Below are positions 430-62,489 of a stretch of DNA of 64,000 nucleotides, one piece after another. The notes under the pieces were generated by a model that saw only the letters and a program-made list of their open reading frames with translations, was not told the origin of the DNA and ran no database searches. Position 1 is the first letter of the stretch. Every line of letters starts with the position of its first letter. The DNA is taken from positions 24,221-88,220 of the forward strand of contig CAYLMJ010000001.1 in NCBI GenBank assembly GCA_964384995.1, given 5' to 3'. Source of the DNA: an uncultured archaeon. Its GTDB lineage: Archaea; Thermoplasmatota; Poseidoniia; MGIII; CAYLMJ01. A program made the translations under genes and the position numbers.

Positions 430-434
430 CGAAA

Positions 435-27740: not shown

Positions 27741-28037
27741 ACAACTCGGAGACATCTCGGAGATAACTCGGAGATAACTCGAAGACAACTCGAAGCCACC
27801 TCGAAGCTACCTCGAAGCTTCTACGAACGATATACGAAGGAGTTACGAACGAGTACCGAAGGAGTAGCGAAGGTTGAATATAGCGGTACTATGGCGGTAC
27901 TTTAGCGGTACTTTAGGGGTACTATGGCGGCAATATAGGATCGATATAGAATTGATATACAATTGATACAGCCGGAATACAGGACGGATAGGGAATGGGT
28001 ATGGGGCGAGTCTCGGGAGAGTAGACAGGAGACACGA
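27741..28037. repeat. Phased tandem array of 27 consecutive 11-bp units that drift progressively in sequence
   Basis: Exact 11-bp register from 27741: acaactcggag acatctcggag ataactcggag ataactcgaag acaactcgaag ccacctcgaag ctacctcgaag cttctacgaac gatatacgaag gagttacgaac gagtaccgaag gagtagcgaag gttgaatatag cggtactatgg cggtactttag cggtactttag gggtactatgg cggcaatatag gatcgatatag aattgatatac aattgatacag ccggaatacag gacggataggg aatgggtatgg ggcgagtctcg ggagagtagac aggagacacga. Confidence 0.85.
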
Positions 28038-28098
28038 GCTATTCTCACCTGAGTTATGCTTTTTATCCTAAACCAGCATCAGGGTCATTGGAATCGAT

Positions 28099-31110: not shown

Positions 31111-31160
31111 TCTCTAACTTGAACGTTCGACGCCTCGGCCCCACCTGACAACACTAAAAC

Positions 31161-31284
31161 CGAGATGGTGGAACCAAACAGCCTGTGGATGGCCGGACGC
31201 CTAACCGTGGAACCTACCAGCCTGATGGCGGCCTGTCGCCAGCCTATCTCAGACCTGGCCCCTAACCGTGGAACCAGCCGGTGG
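31161..31284. repeat. Three degenerate copies of a GTGGAACC-containing unit; the last copy is the 3' end of CDS 31262..31546
   Basis: gatggtggaaccaaacagcctgtggatgg (31164-), ctaaccgtggaacctaccagcctgatggcgg (31201-), ctaaccgtggaaccagccggtgg (31262-). Confidence 0.55.
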
Positions 31285-31546
31285 TCTCGGGGCCGCCCTT
31301 GGCCGCGGCTATCATCTTGAGGGCCTGCTCCATCTCGACGGCTTCGGCCTCGCCCATGAGCTTGCGGAACTTCTCGGTCCACTCCTCGTCGGCCAGCACC
31401 TTCCAGGGACAGCCCGAGTAGCTCTGGGCCCCCTCCTCGGTGAAAATGACTATCTGCTCGAACTGGGGGTTGGCCTGGAACTCGATGTCCTCGAAGACAT
31501 CCGAATCGCCGCTGGGCAGGAACACCTCGATGCGCTGGGCTTTCAT
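31262..31546 (-). CDS. Hypothetical small acidic protein (94 aa)
   Basis: ORF with balanced, protein-like composition, flanked by repeat tracts. No motif recognised. Confidence 0.5.
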   Translation of the reverse strand: MKAQRIEVFLPSGDSDVFEDIEFQANPQFEQIVIFTEEGAQSYSGCPWKVLADEEWTEKFRKLMGEAEAVEMEQALKMIAAAKGGPETTGWFHG

Positions 31547-31627
31547 GGTCGGTCTCCATCTATCGGATACCTACACGCAGGGCACCGGGGCTATTTGGGT
31601 TTTGGGCCTGGGCCTGCCTTTGCTGGT

Positions 31628-31697
31628 GGAGGAAGCGCAGGAGGAGAAGGAAGCGTAGGAGGCGCAGGAGGCCGAGGATGCATGGAAGTGCAGGAGG
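31628..31697. repeat. Purine-rich GGAGG/GCAGGAGG drifting repeat
   Basis: ggaggaagcgcaggaggagaaggaagcgtaggaggcgcaggaggccgaggatgcatggaagtgcaggagg, read directly. It abuts the stop codon of CDS 31698..33737. Confidence 0.5.
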
Positions 31698-33737: not shown

Positions 33738-33749
33738 CAGTAGTACACC

Positions 33750-38648: not shown

Positions 38649-41099
38649 ATGCGAAAGGCCACGACCTGGTGGGGACCCATACCCATAGCCCTCGTGACCG
38701 GGGTAGCGCTCCTGGTCCTGATGCTGTTCCTGATGGTCCTGGCGGCACCGGGTGGAAAGGCGGCCTCGCGTTCCGATGCAACTCCCCTGGTCGAAGACAA
38801 TGACGAGGTTGTCGGCGATGTGGACAAGTTCATGGAACAGTGTTGCGGTCTCTTCGTGGTCCTGGGGGCCATCTGGATCTCCTGGTCCTACTTCAGACGC
38901 TACTTCACGCGCAACAGCCTGGAGCGGGAGCTGGAGGAGCTCCATCGCATGCTCTCAGGGATCTCCCACACCATGCCCGTCCACAGCCTGGAGCAGGCCT
39001 ACCTGGCTCCCGGATACCGCGCTCTGGCCAACAAACACCACCGGGGGATGAAGATGGGGCTTCGTCTGGCCCGGGAGGGCAAGGAGAAGGTCAAGCGACT
39101 GGGTACCGACAACCAGCGCCTGCGCCATGTGCTCATGGAGGCCCAGAAGGCCTACCAGGAGTGCCGGGCCACCGGTTCCAACCCCGACCCCCTGCCCCTG
39201 AAGCAGGCCCAGAACGCCGCCAACCAGGGGCTTCCGGCCAACCAGGTCCATGATCTGGCCAGCCGGGCCCTGGAGACCTACCGGGGCTTCCTGGAGGTCT
39301 GCGAGGATGTGCGCCACACCCTGGAGGAGCTGGCCCACGAGATCGAGCGGGTAAAACCCTACCTGGCCGTGGCCCAGGCCCGCACCAACCTGAACCAGGG
39401 AAAGGCCGCCTGGCTTTCTGGGAAGATCGACCTGGCCGACCGCCTGGCCTACAGCAGTCTGAACCAGCTGCGCACCGACCTCAAGCAGGCCGAGCCCGAG
39501 CTGGTGGCCCAGATCGAGCGCAAGATACCAGCGGGTCTCTGGTTCCGCACCAAGCTCAAGATATCCAACGTGGGACGGGCCCATGCCCGGGAGGTCAGGG
39601 TCCGCCTGGAGGGGATCGAGTCCCAGCCCCTGCCCGCCGTGGAGAGCCTGCCGGCCGGGGAGACCGTGAAGCTGGATGTGGCCCTGAGGACCGCCCAGCC
39701 CGGCACCATCCCCCTGACCATCATCCTCACCGGCGCCCGCATCTACGACAACGGCCTGGTATCGTGCGAGCAGAGCGAATGGCTGGAGGTGGGTGTCGGA
39801 CCCCAGGCCGAGGCCCCGCCGGCGGACCAGCAATGGCAGGCCCCCAAACCTGTCGAGCCCGAGACCCCGGTGAAGCTCCTTCGGGAGCACGAGTTCTACA
39901 GGGGCTACGTGAGGGTGAAGGTGGCGGCCCACAACCGGACGGACACCGTGGTCACCGATGCCGCCGTGGAGCTCCATTTCGACGAGCAGGCCTTCCGCCT
40001 GGACCATGTGGAGCCCGAGTTCCGCGTGCTGGGCACCAAGGCCGTTCTGGGCAACCTGGGTCCGGGACAGAAACGGACCCTGGCCTTCTACCTGGACCCC
40101 CTCATCTGCACCCGTTCCCAGCTGGATGGCACCCTGGTCTACAAGGACATCCAGGGCAAATTGCACCTGGCCAAGATGCGCTCCAAGCAGGTGGAGGTCA
40201 TCTGCCCCATCTTCGTCACCCCCGAGAGTGCCAACGTGGCCACCCTGACCAACCTGGTGGGGGAGGTCCTGGAGCATTCCGATTCCAAGGTCTACAACCT
40301 GCCTCCTGCACTGGGACCGGCCGAGGCCTTCCTTCTGGCCCGGGAGGTACTGGGAGGACGGGAGATCCAGCATGTGCGCAACTTCTGCACCCCCCAGCCC
40401 TACACCGCCGAGGCCTGGTATTACGGCAAGACCAAGGTCAAGGGCCACGAGCTGGTGATGCGGGTGGCGGTGGACGAATCCACCAACTCCATCGAGCTCT
40501 TCGCCGCGGCCCCGGCCCAGGAGCCCCTAACCGGACTGCTGGCCGAGCTGGGTCACGACCTTCACGAACGGATGGAAGCCAGGGGCTGGCCGGTCAAGCA
40601 GGTCACCAACGTCACCATCCGCGACAGCGTCCTCAACCGCACCTCACTGCTCTTCAACCCACCGGAGGAGGCCCAGGAGGTGAAGGAGGCCAACGGGTCC
40701 ACCACCCTCACCGCGGTCTGTCCGGAGGATGGTCTCGATTTGCTGGGTGAAGAGGAGCAACCAGCCGGCGGCAGTAGCAAAGCGGGATCGCCGGCCGACC
40801 GCGAGGTCAATATCAGCATCGAGGATTCGGTGGTGAATCGAAGCGACATCACCACCGAACAAGACCTCTTGGAGACTCACGAAGGGACCAATGGCAGAGC
40901 ACCCGAATCGGTGGGACAGCCAGACCGAACCGACGAGGGACGACCCGAACCTGACATGGGAACGACCTTGACGGACTCCGACCCGGAGCCGGATGAAGAG
41001 GAAGCTCGGGCGGCAAAGAAGAGGCGCAAGCGGGGACGCCCCAACAGCCTGGACGAGGGATTGGAGAAACTGCGGGAGATCGAGCGGGAACTCTCTTAG
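38649..41099 (+). CDS. Membrane-anchored, mostly cytoplasmic 816-aa protein: 2 TM, long helical region, two beta-sandwich-like segments, alpha/beta segment, acidic tail with an AT-hook-like KRGRP
   Basis: TM1 aa 9-33 and TM2 aa 65-82. CARDB-like KISNVGRAHAREVRVRLEG ... GETVKLDVAL. A second module at aa 412-645 resembles the cytoplasmic end of the giant protein. Duplicated V.N(V/I)(T/S)I(R/E)DSV(L/V)NR(T/S) motif. TATA-like cataaatag lies about 25 nt upstream. Confidence 0.8.
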   Translation: MRKATTWWGPIPIALVTGVALLVLMLFLMVLAAPGGKAASRSDATPLVEDNDEVVGDVDKFMEQCCGLFVVLGAIWISWSYFRRYFTRNSLERELEELHRMLSGISHTMPVHSLEQAYLAPGYRALANKHHRGMKMGLRLAREGKEKVKRLGTDNQRLRHVLMEAQKAYQECRATGSNPDPLPLKQAQNAANQGLPANQVHDLASRALETYRGFLEVCEDVRHTLEELAHEIERVKPYLAVAQARTNLNQGKAAWLSGKIDLADRLAYSSLNQLRTDLKQAEPELVAQIERKIPAGLWFRTKLKISNVGRAHAREVRVRLEGIESQPLPAVESLPAGETVKLDVALRTAQPGTIPLTIILTGARIYDNGLVSCEQSEWLEVGVGPQAEAPPADQQWQAPKPVEPETPVKLLREHEFYRGYVRVKVAAHNRTDTVVTDAAVELHFDEQAFRLDHVEPEFRVLGTKAVLGNLGPGQKRTLAFYLDPLICTRSQLDGTLVYKDIQGKLHLAKMRSKQVEVICPIFVTPESANVATLTNLVGEVLEHSDSKVYNLPPALGPAEAFLLAREVLGGREIQHVRNFCTPQPYTAEAWYYGKTKVKGHELVMRVAVDESTNSIELFAAAPAQEPLTGLLAELGHDLHERMEARGWPVKQVTNVTIRDSVLNRTSLLFNPPEEAQEVKEANGSTTLTAVCPEDGLDLLGEEEQPAGGSSKAGSPADREVNISIEDSVVNRSDITTEQDLLETHEGTNGRAPESVGQPDRTDEGRPEPDMGTTLTDSDPEPDEEEARAAKKRRKRGRPNSLDEGLEKLREIERELS

Positions 41100-41233
41100 G
41101 ACCGTCCCCGGTCTTTTCAGAGACATGCCAGGGCCCAATGTTCAACCCCGGCCAGTTCCCGCTTCCTCTTGATGCCCTACCCCACCCAATCCCTTATATC
41201 GAGGGGCAATCTGGCCATTTGCGGAGAAGAGCC

Positions 41234-41827
41234 ATGGTGGATTTCGACCGCCTGATGGCCCTGGGAGATCTTGAGGGCCTCTACGAACTGCTGGACCACA
41301 GCGACCCCGCCACCCGCGGTCAGGCGGTTCAGGTCCTCGGTGAGCTGGGCCGGCCCAAGGCGGCTGCCCGTCTGGTGAAAGCCCTCTCGGATGAGGTCTG
41401 GGAGGTCCGCCAGGCCGCCAAGGAGGCCCTCATCAACCTGGGCGAGGCGACCCTGCCCGAACTGGAGGCGGTCCTGAAAGGTTCCGATGGCGATGTGCGG
41501 CGCTGGTGCGGCGAGACCATCTGCGCCATCGGCGGCCCGGCCACCTACGACATGCTCAGGAACCTGCTCAGGGACCCCGACGACCCTCGCCTGCGCATCG
41601 CCGCGGCGGAGGCCCTGGGGATGACCCGGGAGACCTTCACCATGGAGGTCCTGCTCCGGGCCCTGAAGGACGACTCCTGGGAGGTCCGCCAGGTGGCTCT
41701 GAAGGGGCTGGGACGGCTGGGGGACAAGGAGGCGTTGAAGCCCATCCGGAAGGTGCTGGCCAACGAAAGCAACGGCAAGGTCCAGACCACCGGCGAGACC
41801 GTGGTGGAACAGCTGGAACTGCTCTGA
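41234..41827 (+). CDS. HEAT-repeat (PBS-lyase HEAT-like) protein
   Basis: Repeated D ... VR ... A ... ALG ... A ... LL ... L.D units (SDEVWEVRQAAKEAL, DGDVRRWCGETI, DPRLRIAAAEALG, DSWEVRQVALKGLG). ATG 41234 was chosen. The track start 41138 would add a Pro-rich leader. Confidence 0.8.
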   Translation: MVDFDRLMALGDLEGLYELLDHSDPATRGQAVQVLGELGRPKAAARLVKALSDEVWEVRQAAKEALINLGEATLPELEAVLKGSDGDVRRWCGETICAIGGPATYDMLRNLLRDPDDPRLRIAAAEALGMTRETFTMEVLLRALKDDSWEVRQVALKGLGRLGDKEALKPIRKVLANESNGKVQTTGETVVEQLELL

Positions 41828-50450: not shown

Positions 50451-53400
50451 TCAGCTTCCTTCCAGGAGCTCGTAGACCTCGCCCAGCTTCTCCTTGAACT
50501 GCTCCCTGAAGGCGGCGACCCCCTGGACCAGGGTGAGGGGGCGCTCGGCCACCAGCTCGACGGCCATGGTGTCGTGGCGCAGGCTCAGCCAGGCCACCAC
50601 CTGCTCGGCGTGGGCATCCTGTCCGCCCCACACCGAGTCCTCCACGATGGCGGGTCCCGTGGGGTCGGCCTCCAGGACCAGCTCGGGCAGGGTGCGCAGT
50701 CCCAATTGGTGGAGGGCCGACCTGGCCCTCTGAGCCACCATCTCGCCCTTGATCAGCTCGGGCAGAGGATACTCGATTGTGATGCGATCGCCTCCTGTGC
50801 CCTCCAGCAGGCGGTGGGCCCGGGCCACATCGCTGATGATTGTGAGCTTGGTCAGGTTCGACTGGATAGTCTTGGGCTCCAGCTCCATTATCTCCCAGCG
50901 GCCGGGGATGTGGTAGCCCAGCTTGCCGGTGCATTCGCCCTCGCCCTGGGTCCTGGGCTCCAGGGGGAAGAGGAAGGTCTCGGTGCTGGAATTGGGGATG
51001 CGGGGCAGGTCCACCCGATTTGTCGCCGGACCGTGGGCCAATCTTCCATCCCAGGTGAGGTGGATGACGCCGCGATTCATGTCGAACCGCCCGTTGTTGA
51101 CCACCTTGACCTGCCACAGCAGGCGGCCCCTTCTTGCCACCAGGCTGGTGTCCAGCTCCACCTGGCGCAGGGCCAGCCGGCCCTTCAGCTGCTTGGGCAG
51201 GAGGGCCCGGGTGGGGTCCAGCAGGGTCTCCAGTTCGGCGGTGATGGCCGTCCGCTCCTCGGGACTGATCTTCACCGGCTCGCCGTCCACGAAGGCCGTG
51301 CGCCCCTCGAAATAGCGCAGGAGGTCCTCGGCCGCCTCCCAGATGGGCTGAGGAGGACGCCCCTGGCAGACAAGGGCCAGGAAGTGATGCTGACCGGTGA
51401 TGAGCATCATGGTCTGCCCCCGCTCCAGCTGCCAGGGTCCCAGGTAGCCCAGCTGACCCGGTCGGGCGCCGGCCATCTCCCTGGCGCTGTCCAGGATCTC
51501 TCGGGCCAGCACCGGGTCGACCCCTGCGCCACCCACGACATCCTCCCTGGAGGCGTGGGCGATGGGGCGACCTTCCCAGCTCACCAGGAAGGCCTCCTCC
51601 ACCATGTAGGGCGGCATCTGGGCCAGTTCCCGCAGGGTGGCGTTGTGAGCCCGGGCCGTTGCGCCGCCCAACACCATGGTCATCAGTCCCGCCACCATGA
51701 TGATGCCGATAAGTCGGGCGGTGATCCAGGGCTTGTTGGCGTTGGCACCGATGGGCGGCGCGTCGACCTTGAAGGTAACCTCTTGGGGCTCGGAGAGGCC
51801 GCCATCGTTGTCCACGGCCACCACCACGAAGGTGCGGTTGCCTCCCCCCACGTTGAAGGCCTTGAGGGAGAACTGTGACTGGCGGCCCAGCAGTGAGCTG
51901 TTCTTCAGGCTCCAGAGGTATTCCACCACCTCGCCATCCTGGTCGGCGCCCTCGGCGGTGAACACCAGGTCACCCAGCTCCTGCTCCACCGACATCCTGG
52001 TGATCTCGGGGGGCTTGTTGAGCACCTGGAAGGGCACCACCACCTCGGGCCAGGCCCGGCCGCCCTCGCCATCCTCCAGGGTCAGGTTGACCCGGTAGTG
52101 TCCCATGGGCCAGGTGGCCGCTACGGTGAAGGTGGCCCGGTGGGTCTGGTTGGCCGGATGGTAGACCACCTCCTGCAACGGATAGTAGCTGGCCGAGGAG
52201 CCGTTCTCGGGGTTCAGGCGGAGGGTCCAGCCCAGGACGGCAACCGGGGTCTCCAGGTCGGTGCCATTGACCCACAGGGTGGCCTCGTGGGTGCGGGTCA
52301 CGATCCCGGTGAGGTTGACCCCCGTGAGGTTGGGGGCGTTGTTGCGCACCGAAAGGTTCACCGGCCCCCACCACCCAGATAGACCGCCCTCGTCATCCAC
52401 CAGGCGGGCGTAAAGCTCCATGGCACCCAGATCGGCCGTCAGGGGCACCAGCACCTCACGCTGATAGGCCGCCGGCTCGCCACGTCCACCCATTCCGCCG
52501 AGACCGTCATCTGAGGGGCCTCGGCCGCTCTCATTGAGGGGCCACAAGAGGGGTCGAATGGTCTCACCGTCCAGATAACCGAACTGGGGTGTCAGATCCC
52601 AGGGAAGGGACTCGGGGTCACTGCCATCGAGGAGGATGAACAGCGACCCACCCCGCAGGATGGTGTCGGCTTCGAGGCTGAAGTTGGCCACCCGGGGCGG
52701 GTTGTTGAGCACCTTGAGGGCAGATCTCAATCTAAAGAGGGTGGAGGTCCCGTTGTCGGGGTCGGTGAGCTGGACCTGGAAGGTGTAGTTGCCCAGGGTG
52801 GCGTTGGAAGGAGGGGTGAAAGTGGCCTCCCAGCGGCCTCCGCCCAGGGGTGACCAATTGGGTTCCGAGAGCCATAGGCCGGTGAAGGCATCGAGATCTG
52901 TGGGGCCCTGGGTTACATTGACAAGCATCTGGTCGGAGAGATGGTCGAGGTCTAGGGTTTGGATCTGCAACAGGGCCTCCTGACCCCGAAAGACCTGGGT
53001 CAAGTTCAGGGTTATCTCCTCTACCCGGGGCAGATTGTTGTGCGCCTCCAAAGCTGGTGTCTGGGACTCCCACCAGGGGGTGGAATTGCCATCACCATCG
53101 GTCACCTGCACCCGCATCGAGTAGTTGCCAAGGGTCACTCCCGCCGGCAGGGGCCAGGTCACGTTGTAGCCGCCTGACGCAACATCACGGGTTGTGACGG
53201 AGGCCGCGACCCAGGTGGCGTTGGTGCCAAAGGGCCGGTACTCAAGGCGGGTCGACAAGGAGGGGGCCGGGGTCTCGAAGTCATGGGCCAAAACCATGAC
53301 CCTGACCTCTGAATTGCGCAGGGGGGTGGCATTGTGGACTACATATCCCTGGAGGTGGGGTGGGGTGTTGTTCAACGTGAACAGCCCGTTCACCACGAAC

Positions 53401-56400
53401 CAGTTACTGACCCCGCCATCGGGATCGGATACCTCCACCCGGGCCGAATACAGCCCCAGCTGGGCCGAGGCGTTGGGTGACATGTTGAGCCCACATCGAC
53501 CGTTGATGAAGATCGGCTCGTCCATCCAGCCGGATATCCATCCGGCCTCACCTTCTGGCTGTACCTCGAACGTGGCGTTGAGCAGGGCCGGCTGTTCGTC
53601 ATTCACTTGAGCGGATAGGGTCAGGGTCCCATTGCGCAGGATGGTCTCTTGGTCAACGGTAAGGTTCAGCACCACGGGCGGGCGATTGGTCACCTGGAAT
53701 GCAGAACCAAGTTCCATCCATCCCGAAGGGGTACCGTCGGTATCCGCCAGCCTTGCCCGCAGATCGTAATGACCCAGCATGGAGGTGGCGTTGGGGGTGT
53801 AGGCCGCCTCCCATCGCTGAGCGAGGCCGCCGTAGTAGGGGATGCCCATTCCGGCACCGCTCCAGTTGTCCTGGGAACCGTTCCTGCGATACTGGAAGGT
53901 TGGCACCAACGAGGGCAGGGGATCCTCAAGGTCGGTGCCATTGGCCCACAGGGTGAGGGAGGCCTCTCGCTGAACAGTCGCCAGCGGCCCATCCGCGGGG
54001 CCCACTGACAGTACGCTGGGTGGATTGTTGAGCACCTCCAGCAGAAGGGCGAACACCGGACTCGAGGTGATGTTGGACGAGGCATTGTGGAAGGTCACGG
54101 CGAACTGCCGGGGACCCAGTACCGCATCGGCGGGAGGGGTGAAGTTGACCCGCCACACCTCAAGGTCTCCATCGTAATGCTGGCCGGAGAGGGAGGCATT
54201 GCTCCAGGGACCGCCTCCCAGGGGCCTGTGGCTGAACTCCACCTCCATCTCCCGGGAGTCGTAATGGGACAGGTTGGCCCAGATGGAGGCCGTGGTTGTG
54301 CGAAGGACCGTGACCGAGGGACTGCCCAGATGGACCTCCAGGACCCGGACCCCCTCGCTCAGGGCCACCCAGTCTGAACTCCCCCCATCGGTGTCGTTGT
54401 GGCTGACCCGCAGATCGTAGATGGCCGGCATGATATCCGAGGGAGGAGTGAACCACAGCTCGTGGACCCGGCGGCTGAAGTTCCAGGTCCAGTTCTGGCC
54501 GGAGGCGGAGGTCCAGTTGGTGGTTCCGGTGAGGGTGAACTGAAGGGTCGGTTCCAGCTCCAGCGCCTGGTCCTCCTCGTCGGTGCCCTCGGCCCAGACC
54601 ATCACCGCCTGACCGGGCAGGAGCCATCGGTCGTCGCCTCCCAGAAAGAGGGTCGCGGGGCGGTTGTTGAGCACGTTCAGGACCGGACCTGGACGCCAGC
54701 CAGAGTTGCCGCCCTCGTCATCGGCCAGATGGGCCAGGAAGGTGTAGCTTCCCGGAACCGCATCGTAGGGTGGGCTGAAGAGGGCCAGCCAGACCCCGGA
54801 GCTGGCATTGTAGCTTATGGGCCACAGGTGGGCGGTTCCCAGAAAACCATCGGGGTCGCGATAGGCCAGGGAGGGGGTCAAGTTCTCGCTTGCCGTGGCG
54901 TCGTCATAACCGCTGAAGGTCACCATCAGGGAGCGGCCCCGCAGCACCTGACCGGCCTCCGGTGTGGGTCGGGTGACCACCGGCCGGCCGTTGACCCTGA
55001 GCTGGACCGAGGCCGGGGCCGACCATTCCCAGTGCTCGTCCAGGGCCCAGAAGGAGAGGTTGTGGGTGCCGTTGGAAAGGCCGGGGGTAGAGAAGGCGGC
55101 CTCGATGGATAGCAGGCCGTCAAGGTCCGAACGCCATTCGTACCCGGCCAGCTCGCCATCATCGGATCCCTGGCCGGAAAGATCGGCCGGTGCCCCCTCC
55201 TGGACCAGGGCCGGGGCGGTGGTGATGCGAGACCGGGGTCGGCCGTTGACGGTGATGTTGAAGGTGATGGGCGCAGACCAGGAGGAGTCTGGCCAGCGGG
55301 CTTGAAGGGAGAGGCGGTGGGTGCCGTTGGCCAGCCAGGCCATTCCGGTGCCCTCATCCAGGACCGGGCCCTGAAGGTCGGAAACCCAGCGCATCTGGGC
55401 CCCCGCCTGTGGGGTTGAGCCATTGAGCTGGACCGGTTCACCGCCCACGACATATGATGGAGCCGACGCATCGTTGAGCTCGATGCCTGGCAGTTGGAAC
55501 CAGAAGCCATCGTCGGTCTGCGCCGACGTGGTCAGGGCCTGGCCCTGCAATGTGCCGTTGGGATGGAGGGTCAGTCGCAGGTATCCGAGAGAGCTGTTGT
55601 CGGCCACCATGGACCAGGCCGGGAGGGGCTCGTCCAGGTCTCCCAGACCCCCACCGCCATGGCCCACCATCAGATGGACCGTGCCGTTGGTGGCGTCGGT
55701 GGCGTCCGAGCCGTTCACCAGGGGGCGGGAGCGCTGGTAGTGGCTGTCGGCGGCGCTGGCCAGCAGGGTACCCGGATAGCGGGCCAGAAGGGGTTCCAGA
55801 TGGCTCTGCAGGGTGGCGTTGGAGCCATGGACGGTGCCCGAGCTGTAGAGGGGCTGATGGAGGGATACAAGTCGCCAGCTGACAGACGCATCATCCCAGC
55901 CATCGTCCAGCCTCTCCTCCAGCCACTGGTACTGGGATGACCCTGAGGACAGATCGGCCGAACCGTTGAGGACCAGGAGCTGGAGGCCACCCAACCGGGC
56001 CTCGTACCAGCCCCCTTCGGCCAGGTGCGGCAGGCGTTCCAGGATCCAGTCATCGGCCTGGGCGGAGCCGCTCAGGTCAGCTCCACCGATTCCCGGCAGG
56101 AGCAGGGTCTCTGCGCTGAAGTTGGAGACCAGTCGGGCCCAGTCATCCCAGGCCGTGTGGTTATCTCCGGGAGCCAGGGCCAGGCCGCCTGGGGAGACCA
56201 GCGCGTCCAGCCCGGCCTCGGCCAGGGTCTCAGCGACAGACCGGGCCCCGGCACCAGTGCCCATGGAGCCGAACAGCCCCAGGCTCACCGTGGTGGCTTC
56301 GTGTGGGTCGGGTAGGGTGGTGAAGGTGAGGCTGGAGGATGTGTTGCCTGCGCCGTCGCCCACCCGGAAGTGGTAGGTCGTGTCAGGGTTCAGTCCAGAC

Positions 56401-56732
56401 AGCTCGACCCGGTGGAGCCGCCCCTGCCAGCTCGAACCCATAAGATGAGAACTGTTGCCGGAGGTGGAGAGGTCCAGCTGGGTGTCCGGGCCGTAATCGA
56501 TCTGGCTGGCGAGGGTGTCGTTGTCGGTGGTCCAGATGACGCCCACCGAGGTGCTGGGATCGGCCCCTGCTGGGAGATAGAGCCTGACACCCTCGGGCTC
56601 GACAGAGAGGGCCTGGGCCTGGGTGGCCAGGAAGAGGGAGGCCAGCAGCGCCAGGAGGAACGGGATGGCCCAGGCTAAAGGGGAGCGAGAAGGGCCTCGC
56701 TGAACAACTTCAAGTTCGATGGGGAGGACCAT
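50451..56732 (-). CDS. Giant single-pass membrane protein (about 2,093 aa from ATG 56732): signal peptide, degenerate purple-acid-phosphatase-like domain, PKD-like domains, about 8 Ig-like modules, TM, about 400-aa cytoplasmic region with a Roadblock/LC7-like domain
   Basis: AIPFLLALLASLFLATQAQA. PAP N-domain (TTYHFRVGDG). Metallophosphatase scaffold with most ligands substituted. Modules are delimited by (V/L)(L/T/R)N(N/R/K)(P/A/T)P. TM IGIIMVAGLMTMVLGG. VEEAFLVSWEGRPIAHASRE ... LITGQHHFLALVCQG. The track start 56837 lies in A/T-rich promoter-like DNA. Confidence 0.85.
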   Translation of the reverse strand: MVLPIELEVVQRGPSRSPLAWAIPFLLALLASLFLATQAQALSVEPEGVRLYLPAGADPSTSVGVIWTTDNDTLASQIDYGPDTQLDLSTSGNSSHLMGSSWQGRLHRVELSGLNPDTTYHFRVGDGAGNTSSSLTFTTLPDPHEATTVSLGLFGSMGTGAGARSVAETLAEAGLDALVSPGGLALAPGDNHTAWDDWARLVSNFSAETLLLPGIGGADLSGSAQADDWILERLPHLAEGGWYEARLGGLQLLVLNGSADLSSGSSQYQWLEERLDDGWDDASVSWRLVSLHQPLYSSGTVHGSNATLQSHLEPLLARYPGTLLASAADSHYQRSRPLVNGSDATDATNGTVHLMVGHGGGGLGDLDEPLPAWSMVADNSSLGYLRLTLHPNGTLQGQALTTSAQTDDGFWFQLPGIELNDASAPSYVVGGEPVQLNGSTPQAGAQMRWVSDLQGPVLDEGTGMAWLANGTHRLSLQARWPDSSWSAPITFNITVNGRPRSRITTAPALVQEGAPADLSGQGSDDGELAGYEWRSDLDGLLSIEAAFSTPGLSNGTHNLSFWALDEHWEWSAPASVQLRVNGRPVVTRPTPEAGQVLRGRSLMVTFSGYDDATASENLTPSLAYRDPDGFLGTAHLWPISYNASSGVWLALFSPPYDAVPGSYTFLAHLADDEGGNSGWRPGPVLNVLNNRPATLFLGGDDRWLLPGQAVMVWAEGTDEEDQALELEPTLQFTLTGTTNWTSASGQNWTWNFSRRVHELWFTPPSDIMPAIYDLRVSHNDTDGGSSDWVALSEGVRVLEVHLGSPSVTVLRTTTASIWANLSHYDSREMEVEFSHRPLGGGPWSNASLSGQHYDGDLEVWRVNFTPPADAVLGPRQFAVTFHNASSNITSSPVFALLLEVLNNPPSVLSVGPADGPLATVQREASLTLWANGTDLEDPLPSLVPTFQYRRNGSQDNWSGAGMGIPYYGGLAQRWEAAYTPNATSMLGHYDLRARLADTDGTPSGWMELGSAFQVTNRPPVVLNLTVDQETILRNGTLTLSAQVNDEQPALLNATFEVQPEGEAGWISGWMDEPIFINGRCGLNMSPNASAQLGLYSARVEVSDPDGGVSNWFVVNGLFTLNNTPPHLQGYVVHNATPLRNSEVRVMVLAHDFETPAPSLSTRLEYRPFGTNATWVAASVTTRDVASGGYNVTWPLPAGVTLGNYSMRVQVTDGDGNSTPWWESQTPALEAHNNLPRVEEITLNLTQVFRGQEALLQIQTLDLDHLSDQMLVNVTQGPTDLDAFTGLWLSEPNWSPLGGGRWEATFTPPSNATLGNYTFQVQLTDPDNGTSTLFRLRSALKVLNNPPRVANFSLEADTILRGGSLFILLDGSDPESLPWDLTPQFGYLDGETIRPLLWPLNESGRGPSDDGLGGMGGRGEPAAYQREVLVPLTADLGAMELYARLVDDEGGLSGWWGPVNLSVRNNAPNLTGVNLTGIVTRTHEATLWVNGTDLETPVAVLGWTLRLNPENGSSASYYPLQEVVYHPANQTHRATFTVAATWPMGHYRVNLTLEDGEGGRAWPEVVVPFQVLNKPPEITRMSVEQELGDLVFTAEGADQDGEVVEYLWSLKNSSLLGRQSQFSLKAFNVGGGNRTFVVVAVDNDGGLSEPQEVTFKVDAPPIGANANKPWITARLIGIIMVAGLMTMVLGGATARAHNATLRELAQMPPYMVEEAFLVSWEGRPIAHASREDVVGGAGVDPVLAREILDSAREMAGARPGQLGYLGPWQLERGQTMMLITGQHHFLALVCQGRPPQPIWEAAEDLLRYFEGRTAFVDGEPVKISPEERTAITAELETLLDPTRALLPKQLKGRLALRQVELDTSLVARRGRLLWQVKVVNNGRFDMNRGVIHLTWDGRLAHGPATNRVDLPRIPNSSTETFLFPLEPRTQGEGECTGKLGYHIPGRWEIMELEPKTIQSNLTKLTIISDVARAHRLLEGTGGDRITIEYPLPELIKGEMVAQRARSALHQLGLRTLPELVLEADPTGPAIVEDSVWGGQDAHAEQVVAWLSLRHDTMAVELVAERPLTLVQGVAAFREQFKEKLGEVYELLEGS

Positions 56733-56969
56733 GTCTTGGAGTCTGCCTGTGGAGCCACCGGCCGAATATATTGACCTTCGCCCCCGATTATTGAATTTAA
56801 GTTTGTTGGTCATGGGGAGCTTGCTCGAGCAGAACATGTCAGTTCGATTTTATTATCATCATTCTCAATTAGGAATGAGACAGGGTGCTACAATGGTCTG
56901 GAAGTTAGCTTAAAATACCAACACCAGTTTGCATAAGCCTCCAAATAACTGGAGTGATAGGTGGAACAT

Positions 56970-57101
56970 ATGGATCCGGTCAACCTGATATTATTGTTGA
57001 TAGTCATAGGTATGTGGGGCTTAACGAGCTACTGGTTTTACACAGTACCATCGAAGTACAAACTACTCAATCAGATCCTCAAAGAGCGCATGGGGGAGTG
57101 A
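56970..57101 (+). CDS. Possible 43-aa single-TM peptide (too short for the ORF track)
   Basis: Own translation: MDPVNLILLLIVIGMWGLTSYWFYTVPSKYKLLNQILKERMGE. It ends 6 nt before the next ATG. Weak SD-like ggagtgataggtgg lies upstream. Confidence 0.35.
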   Translation: MDPVNLILLLIVIGMWGLTSYWFYTVPSKYKLLNQILKERMGE

Positions 57102-57107
57102 GCAGTC

Positions 57108-57533
57108 ATGGTTTTTGTCGGTTATGTGTCCAAAGGCCACCCCATCGGAATGGGGCGCATGTTCTGTTCCTCATGCCAATCCGAGACCACCTGGGTCCGG
57201 GTATTGCAAAAGAAAGCGTTCACGTTGCTCTTCATCCCCTTGTTCCCACTGGGTCGATCGATAAAAGTGATATGTGGTGGATGCGGTCTGAAGCAGAAGA
57301 ACACCGAGTTCACTGATGATCTGGGAGCTGCCATCATGCAGCAGATGGCCGCCGGTCAGGCCTCTGAATTGAACCAGACCCCGGGTTTGGAGCAGACCCC
57401 GGCCGAATCACCAGCTCCACCCATGGTTGCGGCCAACGGGAGTACAGGGAACAGTTGCCTGGGATGCGGCCGTCCGGTAAAATTGCCCCCAGGACAGTCT
57501 TATTGCTTTTCCTGCCGGGAAGGACAATCATAG
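57108..57533 (+). CDS. Zinc-ribbon membrane protein (zinc_ribbon_15-like N-domain plus a second C-terminal zinc ribbon)
   Basis: FCSSCQSETTW ... AFTLLFIPLFPLG ... VICGGCG architecture, a Gln/Pro/Ala linker, then CLGCGRPV ... YCFSC. Confidence 0.7.
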   Translation: MVFVGYVSKGHPIGMGRMFCSSCQSETTWVRVLQKKAFTLLFIPLFPLGRSIKVICGGCGLKQKNTEFTDDLGAAIMQQMAAGQASELNQTPGLEQTPAESPAPPMVAANGSTGNSCLGCGRPVKLPPGQSYCFSCREGQS

Positions 57534-57588
57534 AACACCAACGACAAGTGCCGCAACCCCTTTGAAGGTCAGGGTCCATTCGGGGCCG

Positions 57589-58302
57589 ATGAGTCGTGCC
57601 GAAGAGCTCAAGGAGCAGGCGGCGTTGAAGGCCCTTGAGGAGGTCAAGGAGGGGATGCTGGTGGGTCTGGGAACCGGTTCCACCACCGCCTACTTCATCG
57701 CCGGACTGGGACACCGCATCGCCAACGAGGGGCTCAAGGTCATCGGGGTTCCCACAAGCAACGCGGCCCACGAACTGGGTCTGGCGGCCAGGGTGCCCAT
57801 GACCGAGCTGGACCCCCAACGGAGACTGGATGTCACCGTGGATGGCGCCGACGAGGTGGACCCCCAGCTCAACCTGATCAAGGGAATGGGTGGGGCCCTG
57901 CTGAGAGAGAAGGTGGTTGCCGCTCACAGCCGGCTGCACATCACCGTGGTGGACGATTCCAAGCTCACCGAGCCCCTGGGCACCAAGGGCCCCTTGCCGG
58001 TGGAGGTGGTGACCTTCGGCCACACCGTGACCGAGGCCCAGCTGGTGGACCTGGGCTGCCAACCAGAGCTGAGGCTGGAAGCCGATGGAAAGCCCTTCGT
58101 CACCGACAATGGCAACTACATCTACCACTGCACCTTCCCTTCGGGGATGAAGGACCCGAGAGCGACAGATCGAGCCCTGCTGGACCTTCCCGGGGTGGTG
58201 CAGACCGGGCTCTTCCTGGGCCTGACCCACAGGGTCATCGTGGCCGGCGAGAAGGGTGTCTACGAGATCAATGAACCTGCGGCCGGAACATCGGAGGCCT
58301 GA
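57589..58302 (+). CDS. rpiA: Ribose-5-phosphate isomerase A
   Basis: GLGTGSTTAYF, VDGADEVD, IKGMGGALLREK, TDNGNYI. ATG 57589 is in frame with the track TTG 57562. Confidence 0.95.
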   Translation: MSRAEELKEQAALKALEEVKEGMLVGLGTGSTTAYFIAGLGHRIANEGLKVIGVPTSNAAHELGLAARVPMTELDPQRRLDVTVDGADEVDPQLNLIKGMGGALLREKVVAAHSRLHITVVDDSKLTEPLGTKGPLPVEVVTFGHTVTEAQLVDLGCQPELRLEADGKPFVTDNGNYIYHCTFPSGMKDPRATDRALLDLPGVVQTGLFLGLTHRVIVAGEKGVYEINEPAAGTSEA

Positions 58303-58304
58303 GC

Positions 58305-59267
58305 TTGGGACGCGGCGCCTCGTGGCTGACCCTCTGCATCTGCCTGGCCCTGACTTGCCTGACCCTGTTGCCGGCCGGGGAAGGCGGGACCGTTGGTATC
58401 GAGGACCGCTTTCTGGTGGGCTGTGGCGGCGGGAGCTGTCATGGCATTGCCACCCCCGCACTCCAGTTCGAGCTGGAAGGTGTGCCCGCAGAGTACGAGG
58501 CCGACGAGGTCTACACCCTGAACCTGTCCATCACCGGGGGACCGGCGGTGGCCAACGCCTCGTCCCGGGGTCAGGGGGGCTTCGATCTCTTCGTGACCCA
58601 GGGGGAGTTCCAGCTCATGGGGCCCGACTCGGGGAACCTGCGACTGGGACGTTCTGATCGTGAGCTCTCCCACACCGCCAACGAGACCACCCGCCGGTAC
58701 TGGAACTTCCGCTGGATGGCCCCGGAGTCGGGTTCGGGGGACGTGGAGTTCCAGCTGGCGGTGCTGGCCGGTGACGCCAACGGTGACAAGGCCGGCGACC
58801 AGTGGGAGACCCAGCGCATCATCTGCGAAGGCTCCAACTTCAGCTGGCGCGCCTGGGCCCTCAAGGGCCTGGGCATCGCCGTGGTGGTGGCGGTCCTGCT
58901 CTACCTGCGATCCATGCTCAAGGAGGCCGACAGGGCCCAGCGGGAGAAGCTGGCGCGGGAGGCTGAGGCCGGGGCAGAGGGCGAGGCGGGAGCGGATGGG
59001 GCGGAGGACGGCTCCACCGACATCCAGGACCCCCTGGCGCCCATGCCCATCGATATCGGCAGGGACCTGGGCCTGGCGGGTAAGGAGGCACCTTCCCAGA
59101 AAGAACCCGATGACAAGACCGATGACAAGACCGATGTCGGATCCGAGACCGAGCCGGAAGCTGATGAGGACGAGGAACAGGGAACACCCTCTGGCCCATC
59201 TGAGGAACAGGACGAACCGGAAGAACCGGATACAGAGAGCACCGCGAGCCCAGGCAAGGAAGGATGA
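58305..59267 (+). CDS. Membrane-anchored extracytoplasmic protein with a CGGGSCHG motif and a long acidic cytoplasmic tail
   Basis: TTG start, signal peptide WLTLCICLALTCLTLL, beta-rich ectodomain, TM IAVVVAVLLYL, then a Glu/Asp/Pro-rich tail. Confidence 0.7.
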   Translation: MGRGASWLTLCICLALTCLTLLPAGEGGTVGIEDRFLVGCGGGSCHGIATPALQFELEGVPAEYEADEVYTLNLSITGGPAVANASSRGQGGFDLFVTQGEFQLMGPDSGNLRLGRSDRELSHTANETTRRYWNFRWMAPESGSGDVEFQLAVLAGDANGDKAGDQWETQRIICEGSNFSWRAWALKGLGIAVVVAVLLYLRSMLKEADRAQREKLAREAEAGAEGEAGADGAEDGSTDIQDPLAPMPIDIGRDLGLAGKEAPSQKEPDDKTDDKTDVGSETEPEADEDEEQGTPSGPSEEQDEPEEPDTESTASPGKEG

Positions 59268-59965: not shown

Positions 59966-60064
59966 GAAGGGGACTGAGCGGCCCGGAACGGAACGGGACA
60001 AGGCTCGGCTCGAGACCCCGGTCTGGGGACAGGAAGATGATGAGGAGGAAGGGAGCGAAAGGGC

Positions 60065-60229
60065 TCAGGCGTCGAACTCGTCCTGAAGCTCGGTGACCAG
60101 CTGGTCGAGCACCTCGTCGAACTCGGAGGAGCGCAGGACCTTCTGGTTCTGGAACCGGGAGGAATCGACCCGGACGATGTAGCTGGCGCCTTCCTTGAGC
60201 AATTCGATGGAACAGACGTCTTCACTCAT
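60065..60229 (-). CDS. Possible 54-aa acidic protein (too short for the ORF track)
   Basis: Own translation: MSEDVCSIELLKEGASYIVRVDSSRFQNQKVLRSSEFDEVLDQLVTELQDEFDA. More protein-like than the overlapping 118-aa frame 59869..60225. Confidence 0.35.
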   Translation of the reverse strand: MSEDVCSIELLKEGASYIVRVDSSRFQNQKVLRSSEFDEVLDQLVTELQDEFDA

Positions 60230-60459
60230 GGGGCTCAACGAGGCGCCGCATCGACGGGGGGTTTAAAAAGCTTCCCAACGACCTTTTCTGAGAAAAGGTC
60301 GAACAAAAGAGGTTGACCCCCCGCTCGCTACGCTCGCGGGAGGTCCATGGTCAGTGATGGTTATAGATATTGGATGGTCGAGGGAAGACCCATCTGGATG
60401 AGGTGCCGGTCGAATGAGAGGACGAGCGTGTGGACCCAAAAAGAGAGTAGAGAAGCAAT

Positions 60460-60580
60460 AAGCCAGTACTTTATCAGTACTTTACCAGCACTATGGCAGT
60501 AGTATAGGATCAGTATAGCCGGAGTATAGAATGAGTATAGCGGGAGTATAGAGAGATTCTCAATTTAGTATGCAAGATGT
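60460..60580. repeat. Phased tandem array, eleven 11-bp units, partly collinear with 27895..27949
   Basis: aagccagtact ttatcagtact ttaccagcact atggcagtagt ataggatcagt atagccggagt atagaatgagt atagcgggagt atagagagatt ctcaatttagt atgcaagatgt. Weaker periodic words continue to about 60700. Confidence 0.8.
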
Positions 60581-60736
60581 GGACCCCGAGTGCCCCGGTC
60601 GGACCGAACTGTCGGGTCGGAACTGGCGGTGAGGAAGCGTCACAGAAGGCTAAGCGTTACAGAAGTCGGTCGATGATGGGAGGGAGAGGAGCGGTGTTAC
60701 TGAGGGGCAGGGATTTGTGATAATACCGAGGCGGTT

Positions 60737-61267
60737 CTATGGGTCCACTTGTTGACAATAATATTTCATGTAATATTTCACTTTATTCGGTTCACCGAAT
60801 TCCGAGGCGAAAGCATCAATGAACCGTTCGCTATGAGGTGTAAATAGTACGAGTTCTTTTTGATACGTTCTATTTGCTTTGTGGTATTCAATCGTATCAG
60901 CCCATGAATCACAATATATATTGATATAAAGTCCAGTTCTATTCTCTCTGATCCAACCTTCTGCAGCCATTGGGGCATCAGTATAATTGTTATAAAGATG
61001 GAATATGCCAAGTGTAAATACTGTCTCATTCACATGCCATTCGTCTAGTATGAATGTTCGATTATATGTCTCATTTTGGAAAAAATGATAAAGTTGGGTA
61101 TGATTAATTGAATCCAAATCGTATTCAATCCTGACTGCGGGACCCATATAGTAACAGCCTGAACCAGATGGATCGTCATCCTTCAGAAAATAAGATGCTA
61201 GAATAACCAATGAAATGATAATTACAATAATCAAGAATATCAGGGCAGGTTTTCGACCCACTTTCAT
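60737..61267 (-). CDS. Very low-GC membrane-anchored protein (176 aa), unknown family
   Basis: N-terminal anchor ALIFLIIVIIISLVILASYF. Asn/Tyr-rich ectodomain with 7 NxS/T sequons. DNA is about 33% GC in a hand-counted 60-nt sample. Confidence 0.65.
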   Translation of the reverse strand: MKVGRKPALIFLIIVIIISLVILASYFLKDDDPSGSGCYYMGPAVRIEYDLDSINHTQLYHFFQNETYNRTFILDEWHVNETVFTLGIFHLYNNYTDAPMAAEGWIRENRTGLYINIYCDSWADTIEYHKANRTYQKELVLFTPHSERFIDAFASEFGEPNKVKYYMKYYCQQVDP

Positions 61268-61493
61268 CAGTATTTTATTGTTAGGTTCTTATTTAATGAT
61301 GTTGTTGACGAATCAACCTACTTACTTACTAATCCGATGAGCGTTGTCCGGTGGACAGACGCCCGTTCCAGAACCCAGCCTCTTTGTGACAGATAACAAT
61401 CACCAAGGCCCCATCGCGAGGCTCGCTTGCGAGTCGAGTCGATGGGGCATTATTCTTCCCTATGAGCTTTATCCCGAAGGGAGAAAGAGAAGG

Positions 61494-61565
61494 TAGCCCC
61501 GGACGGATTTGAACCGTCGTCACCGGCTCCAAAGGCCGGTATGATTACCCCTACACTACGGGGCC
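61494..61565 (-). tRNA. tRNA-Gln (anticodon TTG)
   Basis: Minus strand GGCCCCG TA GTGT AGGGGTAA TCAT A CCGGC CTTTGGA GCCGG TGAC GACGG TTCAAAT CCGTC CGGGGCT A. The 7-bp acceptor has G1-U72, there are 5-bp anticodon and T stems, the T-loop is TTCAAAT, and the anticodon loop is C-T-TTG-G-A. 72 nt, no encoded CCA. Confidence 0.85.
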
Positions 61566-61640
61566 ACGCCGCGTCGATGAGCCCTCGGGTTTTAGCGTTT
61601 ATGGTCCCGAATGTCCCAGCTGGAGGTTTATTCACACAAC

Positions 61641-61757
61641 CAGGCAGGGGAGGCATTGAGGAGGAGGCACTGTAGATGAGGCTCCAAGGAGAGGCATGGA
61701 AGAGGAGGCGAAGGAAGCAGGGGAGGCAACGGAGGCACAGGAGGCAAGGGAGGCGAA
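61641..61757. repeat. Purine-rich GGAGGC(A) drifting repeat (about 9-11-bp units)
   Basis: caggcaggggaggcattgaggaggaggcac ... ggaggcaac ggaggcaca ggaggcaag ggaggcgaa. The track ORF 61676..62134 is its translation. Confidence 0.55.
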
Positions 61758-61811
61758 TATGCTTCGATGGTCATGAACAATCGTTAAGTAGACTCCAATC
61801 TCCTTCCGCCC

Positions 61812-62489
61812 ATGGACACCCGTTCAAGGGCTCTCGACAAGGTCCACCAGGTCTACGATTCGGGCGACACCCTCGAGTCCTTCTACGACGACTGGGCCAG
61901 CTCCTACGACGAGGATGTCCACGACCTCCATTACGCCGGTCCCGGGCTCATCTGCGACCTTCTCCTGAAGGACAACGGACATCCCGCCGTCAAGGTCGAT
62001 GTCAGCGACCCCAAGCTCAGGATCATCGATGTGGGTTGCGGCACCGGGCTGGTGGGCAAGGAACTGGCCAGGCGGGCGAGCTATCGCAACCTCACCGGGG
62101 TCGACCTCTCGCGAAGCATGCTCTCCACCTGTGAGCGGCTGGGCGTCTATGCCGAGCTGAAGAAAGGGAAGCTTACCGGGATGAAAGATGAGGCTGAGAG
62201 CCGCCTGCCTTACCCCGATGACCAGTTCGACGTGACCCTGTGCTGTGGGGTCTTCACCCTGGGCCATGTCCATCCCAAGGGCCTCCTGGAGCTTGTCCGC
62301 ATCACCCGACCGGGGGGGCTGGTGGTCTTCACCACCAAGGTGACCTACTTTGCCACCTCCAAGATGCAGAGCACCCTGGACGGTCTGAGCGCTTCCGAAC
62401 GGTGGCAGCTAGTTGACCGGTGGCTGGACCGGCCCTACGTGGGTGAGCCCGGCGGCGAGGCCCACTACTGGAAATTCGTCGTCATGTGA
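61812..62489 (+). CDS. Class I SAM-dependent methyltransferase
   Basis: Motif I IIDVGCGTGLVG, motif post-I GVDLSRSML, FDVTLCCGVF, RPGGLVVFT. Confidence 0.85.
   Translation: MDTRSRALDKVHQVYDSGDTLESFYDDWASSYDEDVHDLHYAGPGLICDLLLKDNGHPAVKVDVSDPKLRIIDVGCGTGLVGKELARRASYRNLTGVDLSRSMLSTCERLGVYAELKKGKLTGMKDEAESRLPYPDDQFDVTLCCGVFTLGHVHPKGLLELVRITRPGGLVVFTTKVTYFATSKMQSTLDGLSASERWQLVDRWLDRPYVGEPGGEAHYWKFVVM

Follow-up and report, generated by a model that had tools for sequence, protein, structure and literature searches.

The 64,000-nucleotide stretch of DNA analysed here (the window; contig CAYLMJ010000001.1, positions 24,221 to 88,220) comes from an uncultured archaeon of the MGIII group and encodes, on its minus strand, a giant membrane protein of 2093 residues. 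On profile and alignment evidence, the cytoplasmic tail of this protein is shown to belong to an archaeal family of Meth_adaptin-type modules. The tail is predicted to combine a Roadblock/longin-like domain with a region that is best read, from a structural model, as adaptin-appendage-like. We infer, with moderate confidence, that it acts as a docking hub that couples a surface protein to sorting or membrane-remodelling machinery, possibly of the endosomal sorting complex required for transport (ESCRT) type. An earlier note on the same DNA, made from its letters alone (the original prediction), had proposed a receptor-like protein with a Roadblock/LC7-like domain inside the cell. The appendage-like identity, absent from that note, is the more informative label for the tail.

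50451..56732, minus strand: coding sequence of the giant protein, 2093 aa plus stop (open reading frame list, translation, ortholog start, synteny, substitution ratios)
56610..56732, minus strand: signal peptide, aa 1-41 (hydropathy scan, hydrophobic core aa 17-44, AQA-LS motif)
51648..51728, minus strand: single transmembrane (TM) helix, aa 1669-1695 (Kyte-Doolittle scan, peak 2.1)

A single unbroken open reading frame (ORF) spans 50451..56837 on the minus strand. Its first in-frame ATG, at 56837, is probably not the start. The methionine at 56732 is the likely start, as originally proposed, because the ortholog P0001 starts at the equivalent methionine and a signal sequence comes next. P0001 (2092 aa, 70% identical) is the sole close relative returned by an exhaustive phmmer search of 1.8 billion representative proteins. 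Its gene was found on three metagenomic contigs (L001-L003) with a gene order conserved with the window; common neighbours are a class-I LysRS, a phosphoribosyltransferase, a 711-aa protein, a CarboxypepD_reg/PEGA protein, an M32 carboxypeptidase, a HEAT protein and a 788-aa protein. The ratio of nonsynonymous to synonymous substitution rates (dN/dS) against the ortholog is 0.31 for the whole gene and 0.17-0.33 in each structured domain. By these comparative measures the giant-protein gene is real, and its tail is under stronger constraint than the ectodomain. Within the tail, dN/dS is 0.17-0.26 in the three folded domains and 0.45 in a 41-residue linker, and the tail is the best-conserved part of the protein (76-84% identity to the ortholog, versus 65-72% in the ectodomain).

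A type-I membrane topology of the protein follows from its signal peptide, its single TM helix and an excess of N-X-S/T sequons in the ectodomain. There are 59 such sequons outside, versus 13.1 ± 3.2 in composition-preserving shuffles, a 4.5-fold enrichment (0 of 2000 shuffles reach 59), and 3 in the tail. From these sequons we anticipate a heavily N-glycosylated surface protein. The signal peptide is presumably cleaved between AQA and LS, a cleavage-type motif. The scan places the TM helix close to where the original prediction had put it (nt about 51655-51730), and the proposal of a giant type-I membrane protein was likewise borne out.

The cytoplasmic tail

51300..51650, minus strand: Roadblock/longin-like alpha/beta domain, tail aa 2-118 (protein aa 1695-1811; profile, modelled topology)
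51162..51299, minus strand: helical linker, tail aa 119-164 (modelled helices 131-148 and 153-162, model confidence 81-94)
50862..51161, minus strand: beta-sandwich (IG-like) subdomain, tail aa 165-264 (modelled strands, Foldseek, family profile)
50454..50861, minus strand: alpha/beta platform (TBP-like) subdomain, tail aa 265-400 (modelled alpha-beta-alpha-beta-beta-beta-alpha, Foldseek, motif correspondence)

The tail comprises the 398 aa after the TM helix. A k-mer (word-seeded) homolog search of 5.8 billion proteins with it returned nothing. The exhaustive phmmer search returned the ortholog and an informative borderline match, P0002 (E = 5e-4). In this protein of 682 aa, the PKD-like ectodomain is followed by a TM helix and a zinc ribbon, next by a stretch that shares 30% identity with tail aa 14-186, and then by a module that clearly resembles the C-terminal half of an 816-aa protein encoded in the window. 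A second borderline match, P0003 (E = 6e-4), was rejected as spurious: this repeat protein matches tail aa 270-381 four times, each time only in part, has no family-profile match and differs in architecture. Relatives were gathered from P0002 (29 proteins) and then with an alignment of the first domain (28 more), giving 57 proteins.

When the query and its ortholog were left out of the profiles, these still matched both domains of the tail, in the same order (first domain 15.5 bits, E = 8e-7; second domain 8.9 bits, E = 5e-5; each as a single comparison). The tail was also recruited in iterated family searches, and a MAFFT alignment (A2) is co-linear with the family, with the motif correspondence VEDSVWGG / AEAWYYG. 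AlphaFold (AF2), given a family alignment of 39 sequences, yielded a tail model with a mean predicted local distance difference test score (pLDDT) of 76.8; a single-sequence AlphaFold model was unusable (pLDDT 36).

On the basis of this model, the second module of the tail is best read as adaptin-appendage-like, with an IG sandwich followed by a TBP-like platform. In a Foldseek search of the PDB, of the kind suggested in the original prediction for the residues after the helix, adaptin and COPI appendages lead: a COPI appendage (9qpq_H, 6e-7) and the beta2-appendage (1e42, 9e-7) stand at the top of the list for the tail model, and gamma-COP (1r4x) and the alpha-appendage (1w80) are matched as well. 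Of the 12 top matches (E 6e-7 to 4.6e-5), seven are chains that contain adaptin or COPI appendages and a further two are BBSome subunits. AP2 mu2 and arrestin, like the BBSome subunits, rank behind the appendages, and Ig domains of Kir channels match the sandwich only. The alignments to isolated appendage domains of 233-274 residues extend over 235-268 columns, which implies a match to both subdomains. In Pfam, neither Alpha_adaptinC2 nor B2-adapt-app_C was matched significantly; weak Alpha_adaptinC2 matches occur in two relatives (E = 0.061 in 1 of 21; E = 0.0053 in the Asgard member L030). The original prediction had also seen the sandwich plus alpha/beta module in the 816-aa protein. The likeness is invisible to BLASTP (tail against the 816-aa protein, best E = 3.8) and real at the profile level.

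The first domain of the tail is Roadblock/longin-like by its predicted topology. Its modelled elements are helix 2-12, strands 16-25 and 30-35, helix 47-62, strands 73-78, 80-86 and 90-98, and helix 102-118, that is, alpha-beta-beta-alpha-beta-beta-beta-alpha over about 115 aa (pLDDT about 57-89 by 10-residue block). Weak evidence from sequence points the same way. Among 21 relatives, the most frequent weak Pfam matches are to Fuz_longin_1 (3 of 21, best E 0.03) and Robl_LC7 (2 of 21, best E 0.01), and MAPKK1_Int (LAMTOR3 family) is also found. With hhalign, run against unverified target sequences, DYNLRB1 and a four-sequence Roadblock profile scored best among Roadblock, longin and control targets (7-15% probability), and the alignment to DYNLRB1 is in register over 73 columns (P = 0.005; controls 8-18 columns), which we take as a lead. 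No significant profile match to Roadblock/LC7 (PF03259) or to longin was obtained in Pfam, in PDB profile searches or with hhalign. Of the Roadblock/LC7 assignment in the original prediction, the pattern is compatible with the modelled topology, which has one strand more than claimed, but every profile search was non-significant. 'Roadblock/longin-like' is therefore a description of the domain, and no membership in either family is claimed.

Longin is an equally good label for this domain, judging from the relatives, because many of them have no N-terminal helix and start directly at the first strand, as longin domains do. AP2 mu2 and delta-COP, which bear longin N-domains, align to the whole tail over 428-466 columns in Foldseek, a result that is no more than suggestive. 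The domain is limited to a subset of the family (P0002, P0004-P0011, P0027-P0031 and proteins of L005, L006 and L027), and P0027-P0031 have the sandwich only besides it. About 45 sequences were found in the 5.8-billion-protein and genome collections, none with a Pfam assignment for that domain. These sequences define a small un-annotated Roadblock/longin-like domain family.

Relatives in other archaea and a proposed role for the tail

A scan for the module covering one genome per GTDB species gave 28 loci. The hosts are the archaeon with an 85%-identical 816-aa protein, Methanobacteriota metagenome-assembled genomes (MAGs), Methanoperedens, Methanosarcinaceae, Thermoplasmata, one Promethearchaeia (Asgard) MAG and one contig binned as Omnitrophota. 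Nearly all family members have a TM helix between the module and a variable outside domain (PKD, He_PIG/cadherin-like Ig, SBBP propeller with TSP3, or FGE-sulfatase). In the Promethearchaeia protein (L030, 5655-8888), for instance, a TM helix links an SBBP propeller and TSP3 repeats on the outside to the module on the inside. In one Methanobacteriota MAG (L006), two neighbouring genes (2-1543 and 1540-5952) both encode a Roadblock/longin-like domain. The second protein, of 1470 aa, has a He_PIG/Big_9/cadherin-like ectodomain, a TM helix, a Roadblock-like domain and the appendage module, and by this predicted layout it comes closest to the giant protein in architecture. In a Thermoplasmata archaeon (CP070726.1; L034, 4727-10166), a 1097-aa frame (signal, fn3, TM) runs into a 736-aa module frame; the two are probably one frameshifted gene of about 1,800 aa coding for another such receptor-like protein, with a Band_7/SPFH gene about 1 kb upstream.

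The giant protein has by far the largest ectodomain in the family and is the only one with a pseudo-phosphatase head. The original prediction had called the architecture unusual. One ortholog cluster among 1.8 billion representatives supports this, but TM-anchored relatives with other ectodomains exist. Judged by domain content, the fusion is therefore unusual in degree and precedented in kind, and it belongs to an already-described family that was recently linked to ESCRT.

In Methanosarcinaceae and Methanoperedens, a gene for a Vps4-like AAA ATPase (AAA + Vps4_C) flanks that of the module. The Methanosarcinaceae loci also contain Snf7-like, SPFH plus zinc-ribbon and HEAT (Adaptin_N, E = 4e-13) genes, and often a second module gene. 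Vps4, ESCRT-III and SPFH genes occur all together in L015 (4969-11431), L019, L020 and L026, and Vps4 alone in L011, L013 and L031. In the Methanoperedens loci L011 and L013 the Vps4-like gene adjoins the module gene; in L013 (6149-7948, plus strand) it lies directly upstream and encodes an ATPase fused to a diadenylate-cyclase (DAC) domain (PF02457, E = 5.8e-17). By composition, the Methanosarcinaceae loci match the archaeal 'Meth_adaptin' ESCRT system described by Makarova et al. 2024, whose proteins were assigned an adaptin appendage region (IG + TBP); one such protein is joined through a TM linker to a GOLD domain (PMC11188069). The appendage assignment made here from the tail model agrees with this independent one for its relatives (PMC11188069). 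In Asgard archaea, multidomain proteins that combine longin, appendage and Vps28-C were proposed to be ESCRT-0-like cargo adaptors, and longin domains fused to appendage regions may activate small GTPases (PMC11188069).

The pseudo-phosphatase head faces outward on a stalk of about twelve Ig-like modules, and one TM helix joins the stalk to the tail. In the mechanism that we favour, the tail would serve as a docking hub in the manner of adaptin ears and Roadblock/longin domains. The appendage-like part could bind cytosolic partners, and the Roadblock/longin-like part could dimerise or hold a partner protein. Acting together, both parts would connect the protein at the cell surface with membrane-associated machinery for sorting or remodelling. 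The partners might be the 816-aa membrane paralog and its HEAT-repeat neighbour, encoded about 10 kb from the giant gene, and an ESCRT-III/Vps4-type system that may be encoded elsewhere in the genome. The tail contains no enzymatic domain and presumably has no enzymatic output of its own.

A different role would follow if an outside ligand altered the Roadblock-type domain of a transmembrane receptor, and this domain served as a GTPase-activating or nucleotide-exchange (GAP/GEF) platform for an MglA/Arf/Rag-like GTPase. The modelled topology of the first tail domain fits this idea, as do the weak Robl_LC7, Fuz_longin_1 and MAPKK1_Int matches of the relatives and the suggested role of the Asgard longin and appendage fusions as small-GTPase activators (PMC11188069). 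Two related loci also encode GTPases: in Thermoplasmata, about 7 kb separate a Ras-family GTPase gene (PF00071, E = 1e-39; L027, 16161-16739, minus strand) from a gene with Roadblock-like domain and appendage, and in L014 a Roc-COR GTPase gene (2-1879, plus strand) is about 4 kb away from a module gene. However, GTPase genes occur in the flanks of just these two of the 28 loci, in neither case directly next to the module gene. In the 64-kb window and the ortholog contigs, phmmer, a regex motif scan and Pfam calls found no small GTPase gene, in line with the original prediction, which had recognised none in the window. In addition, the Roadblock sequence matches are non-significant, and no catalytic or switch-contact residues could be mapped. 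We consider GTPase regulation of this kind improbable, and the tail is best read as a docking hub rather than as a proven GTPase regulator.

Several observations weigh against the docking hub as well, among them the GTPase-free window just described. The tail has no Pfam match even at E <= 10, no NCBIfam match and no PDB sequence match, and PDB-sequence profile searches with the Roadblock-like alignments (A1, A4) and the module alignment (A3) gave noise only. With 14-25% identity to family members it is a far outlier, and the Cys pair and EAWYYG motif that the family conserves are missing from it. In the model, the platform subdomain has a pLDDT of 48-81, and the Foldseek TM-scores are low (TMt 0.28-0.36, root-mean-square deviation 13-15 A). 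Searches with phmmer, a motif scan and Pfam calls found no Vps4, ESCRT-III or SPFH gene in the window or in L001-L003, and because of this the proposed ESCRT link rests on distant relatives (15-25% module identity). The binding partners of the tail are candidates only.

Adaptin ears, longin/Roadblock domains and HEAT trunks are building parts of eukaryotic vesicle coats and GTPase platforms. The link of their archaeal versions to ESCRT is recent, and to our knowledge there is no experimental study of them. Here, ear-like and Roadblock/longin-like parts form the cytoplasmic end of a giant, glycosylated and evidently non-enzymatic surface protein of a non-Asgard host. The giant protein is thus a concrete, testable candidate for coupling an archaeal surface protein to cytoplasmic sorting or remodelling machinery. 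It is conceivable, if doubtful, that the host has a primitive split adaptor-like sorting system, in which cargo or receptor membrane proteins, here the giant protein and the 816-aa paralog, carry their own longin/Roadblock and ear modules and the HEAT 'trunk' is encoded separately. Such a system, perhaps with ESCRT-III/Vps4 encoded elsewhere in the genome, might sort surface glycoproteins into vesicles or membrane domains, a suggestion that we regard as equally speculative. If true, the set of longin, HEAT and ear parts used in eukaryotic coats would predate the Asgard archaea and extend beyond them.

The pseudo-phosphatase head and the stalk

56316..56582, minus strand: purple-acid-phosphatase N-terminal (fn3-like) domain, aa 51-139 (Pfam PF16656, Pur_ac_phosph_N, E = 9.4e-17)
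55518..56315, minus strand: degenerate metallophosphatase domain including the Metallophos_C part, aa 140-405 (phmmer to purple acid phosphatase structures, PF14008)
54993..55517, minus strand: two beta modules of about 85 aa, aa 406-580 (each ends in VNGRP, at aa 495 and 580)
52026..54992, minus strand: nine tandem Ig-like modules of about 108 aa, aa 581-1569 (hidden Markov model, N(N/R/K)xP hinges between modules)
51753..52019, minus strand: membrane-proximal PKD-like module, aa 1572-1660 (weak Pfam/NCBIfam matches)

The head aligns to the plant purple acid phosphatase (PAP) 1xzw over about 315 residues (aa about 63-378; phmmer against PDB, E = 3e-12), and Metallophos_C (PF14008) covers aa 350-400 (E = 2.3e-6). 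In this alignment GDIG is replaced by GSMG, GDLSY by GGLAL, GNHE by GGAD and GHVH by AADS, and the His of VHAPLY is retained (SLHQPLYSS). Thus, Gly, Ser, Leu or Ala stand in place of 6 of the 7 metal ligands, and the ortholog P0001 shows identical replacements. The loss of most ligands, claimed in the original prediction, holds on alignment to solved PAPs, where one of the seven is retained. The first three motifs and the kept His were also read correctly, but the equivalent of GHxH had been given as DSHY and is AADS in the PAP alignment. The domain is under selection (dN/dS 0.33).

By these replacements, the head is a conserved pseudo-enzyme, predicted to be no longer able to bind its two metals. 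Because two-metal binding is predicted to be lost, the head would be a binding or structural module. Could it still be an active extracellular phosphatase, hydrolysing phosphate esters via substitute ligands? In favour of this, the PAP N-domain and the metallophosphatase scaffold as a whole can still be recognised, one ligand His is retained, and Asp and His residues lie near the lost GHVH motif (AADSHY). Against this stand the six replaced ligands, their identity in the ortholog and the lack of a Pfam match to the catalytic Metallophos domain (PF00149) in the giant protein, and we consider catalysis highly improbable. As a predicted binding module, the head is a clean example of an enzyme scaffold reused under purifying selection.

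The stalk has about twelve Ig-like modules: two small beta modules, nine modules of about 108 aa and one PKD-like module. The original prediction had described about eight modules of about 110 aa with hinges. Both modules and hinges are real, but a hidden Markov model seeded on six modules recovers nine across aa 581-1569, with hinges (NNPP/NRPP/NNTP/NNLP/NNPP/NNAP/NKPP) at a spacing of 105-121 aa. Weak Pfam matches in this region are to DUF4625, MG2, GEVED and Big_9. PKD-like domains had been placed directly after the head. There, the two modules of about 85 aa (aa 406-580) have no significant Pfam match, and it is the last module that resembles PKD weakly (K319L-like_PKD E = 0.0019 and PKD E = 0.29, both under gathering scores; NF038112 region E = 4e-4). 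A beta module of the 85-aa type is 42% identical to a module in L005. The 1823-aa neighbour protein in that locus was considered as a paralog and rejected, since only one small beta module is in common.

An ectodomain of this kind, in which Ig repeats with a single Cys form a very long stalk rich in glycans, could also belong to a purely structural surface protein (an adhesin, or a glycocalyx or S-layer-like component) whose tail only anchors or oligomerises. Further large secreted repeat proteins are encoded in the window (a 1003-aa SBBP+PKD protein, CARDB and CarboxypepD_reg/PEGA proteins), and the tail evolves more slowly than the ectodomain, the usual pattern when a protein is exposed at the surface. 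However, a three-domain tail of 398 residues that is the best-conserved part of the protein exceeds the needs of an anchor. Moreover, the tail modules recur behind unrelated ectodomains (PKD, He_PIG/cadherin-like, SBBP propeller, FGE-sulfatase), which points to a portable cytoplasmic function. A purely structural role is thus unlikely in our view, and we retain the docking hub as the preferred role.

Genomic context and comparison with known systems

38649..41099, plus strand: gene of the 816-aa membrane protein, which carries the appendage-like module
39870..40649, plus strand: appendage-like module of the 816-aa protein, aa 408-667 (family profile match)
41138..41827, plus strand: gene of a HEAT-repeat protein, directly downstream of the 816-aa gene (PF13646, E = 4.5e-36)

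The 816-aa protein has an 85% identical ortholog in the GTDB MAG CAYSUX01. The 816-aa and HEAT genes lie side by side in L001 and L004 as well, and the adjacency is also conserved in the Methanosarcinaceae loci L015 and L019, where the HEAT protein is a different one. In L022, L008, L010 and L020, HEAT repeats are fused N-terminally to the module, a layout like that of adaptin large subunits. Neighbouring genes in the window, which include those of a class-I LysRS, a 2-oxoacid:ferredoxin oxidoreductase, a hybrid-cluster protein and a desulfoferrodoxin, indicate an anaerobic archaeal host.

The spacer upstream of the giant gene (56733-57561, 829 bp) has 50% GC in surroundings of about 64%, and exceeds its counterpart in the ortholog contig by about 540 bp. 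It contains a 141-aa ORF with CxxC pairs, zinc-ribbon-like (57108-57533, plus strand), and a hydrophobic ORF of about 43 aa; neither ORF region aligns to L001. A 375-aa ORF (57334..58461, minus strand) is probably no gene: it has no Pfam match and overlaps a plus-strand ribose-5-phosphate isomerase A gene (57562-58302, E = 4e-56), an ORF likewise present in the ortholog contig. Three low-GC stretches (0.48-0.50, versus 0.60-0.67) lie within 28001-34000 and 60001-62000 and may be acquired DNA. One holds the 1003-aa SBBP beta-propeller and PKD surface protein (28099-31110) and another a 679-aa ORF without a Pfam match (31698-33737).

Among known systems, plant and bacterial purple acid phosphatases (such as 1xzw and 4dhl) share with the head the fn3-like N-domain and the metallophosphatase scaffold over the aligned length. 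Unlike them, the giant protein has lost nearly all of the metal ligands, and the head is fused to a receptor-like protein of 1,700 aa. Roadblock/LC7 proteins (MglB, LAMTOR2/3, DYNLRB) and longin domains resemble the first tail domain in predicted topology, in a length of about 115 aa and in the hhalign register with the unverified DYNLRB1 sequence over 73 columns. In contrast to them, this domain has no significant profile match, is tethered to a TM helix and has no GTPase partner gene in the window, and many family members lack helix alpha-1. Eukaryotic adaptin and COPI appendages (1w80, 1e42, 1r4x) have the same bipartite arrangement of sandwich and platform and are the best Foldseek matches of the tail model. 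They differ in that the giant polypeptide has no HEAT trunk, a separate HEAT gene lying near the paralog; sequence similarity is not significant and TM-scores are low.

The Asgard longin/appendage/Vps28-C proteins (PMC11188069) likewise combine a longin/Roadblock-type domain and an appendage-like region in one polypeptide. Unlike these, the giant protein is membrane-anchored with a giant ectodomain, no Vps28-C was detected in it, and its host is not an Asgard archaeon, its relatives being in Thermoplasmata and Methanobacteriota MAGs; the likeness is one of domain combination. The Meth_adaptin proteins share with it the sandwich plus platform module by profile homology, with members in loci that encode Vps4, Snf7-like, SPFH-Zn-ribbon and HEAT proteins. 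They also share its predicted layout, in which a TM helix separates a cytoplasmic module from a variable outer domain, as in the published GOLD case (PMC11188069). In contrast to them, the giant gene has no nearby Vps4, ESCRT-III or SPFH gene in the window, and its module is very divergent (14-23% identity), without the Cys pair and the EAWYYG motif. To the shared plan, the giant protein adds a Roadblock/longin-like domain and a 1,600-aa ectodomain with a pseudo-phosphatase head.

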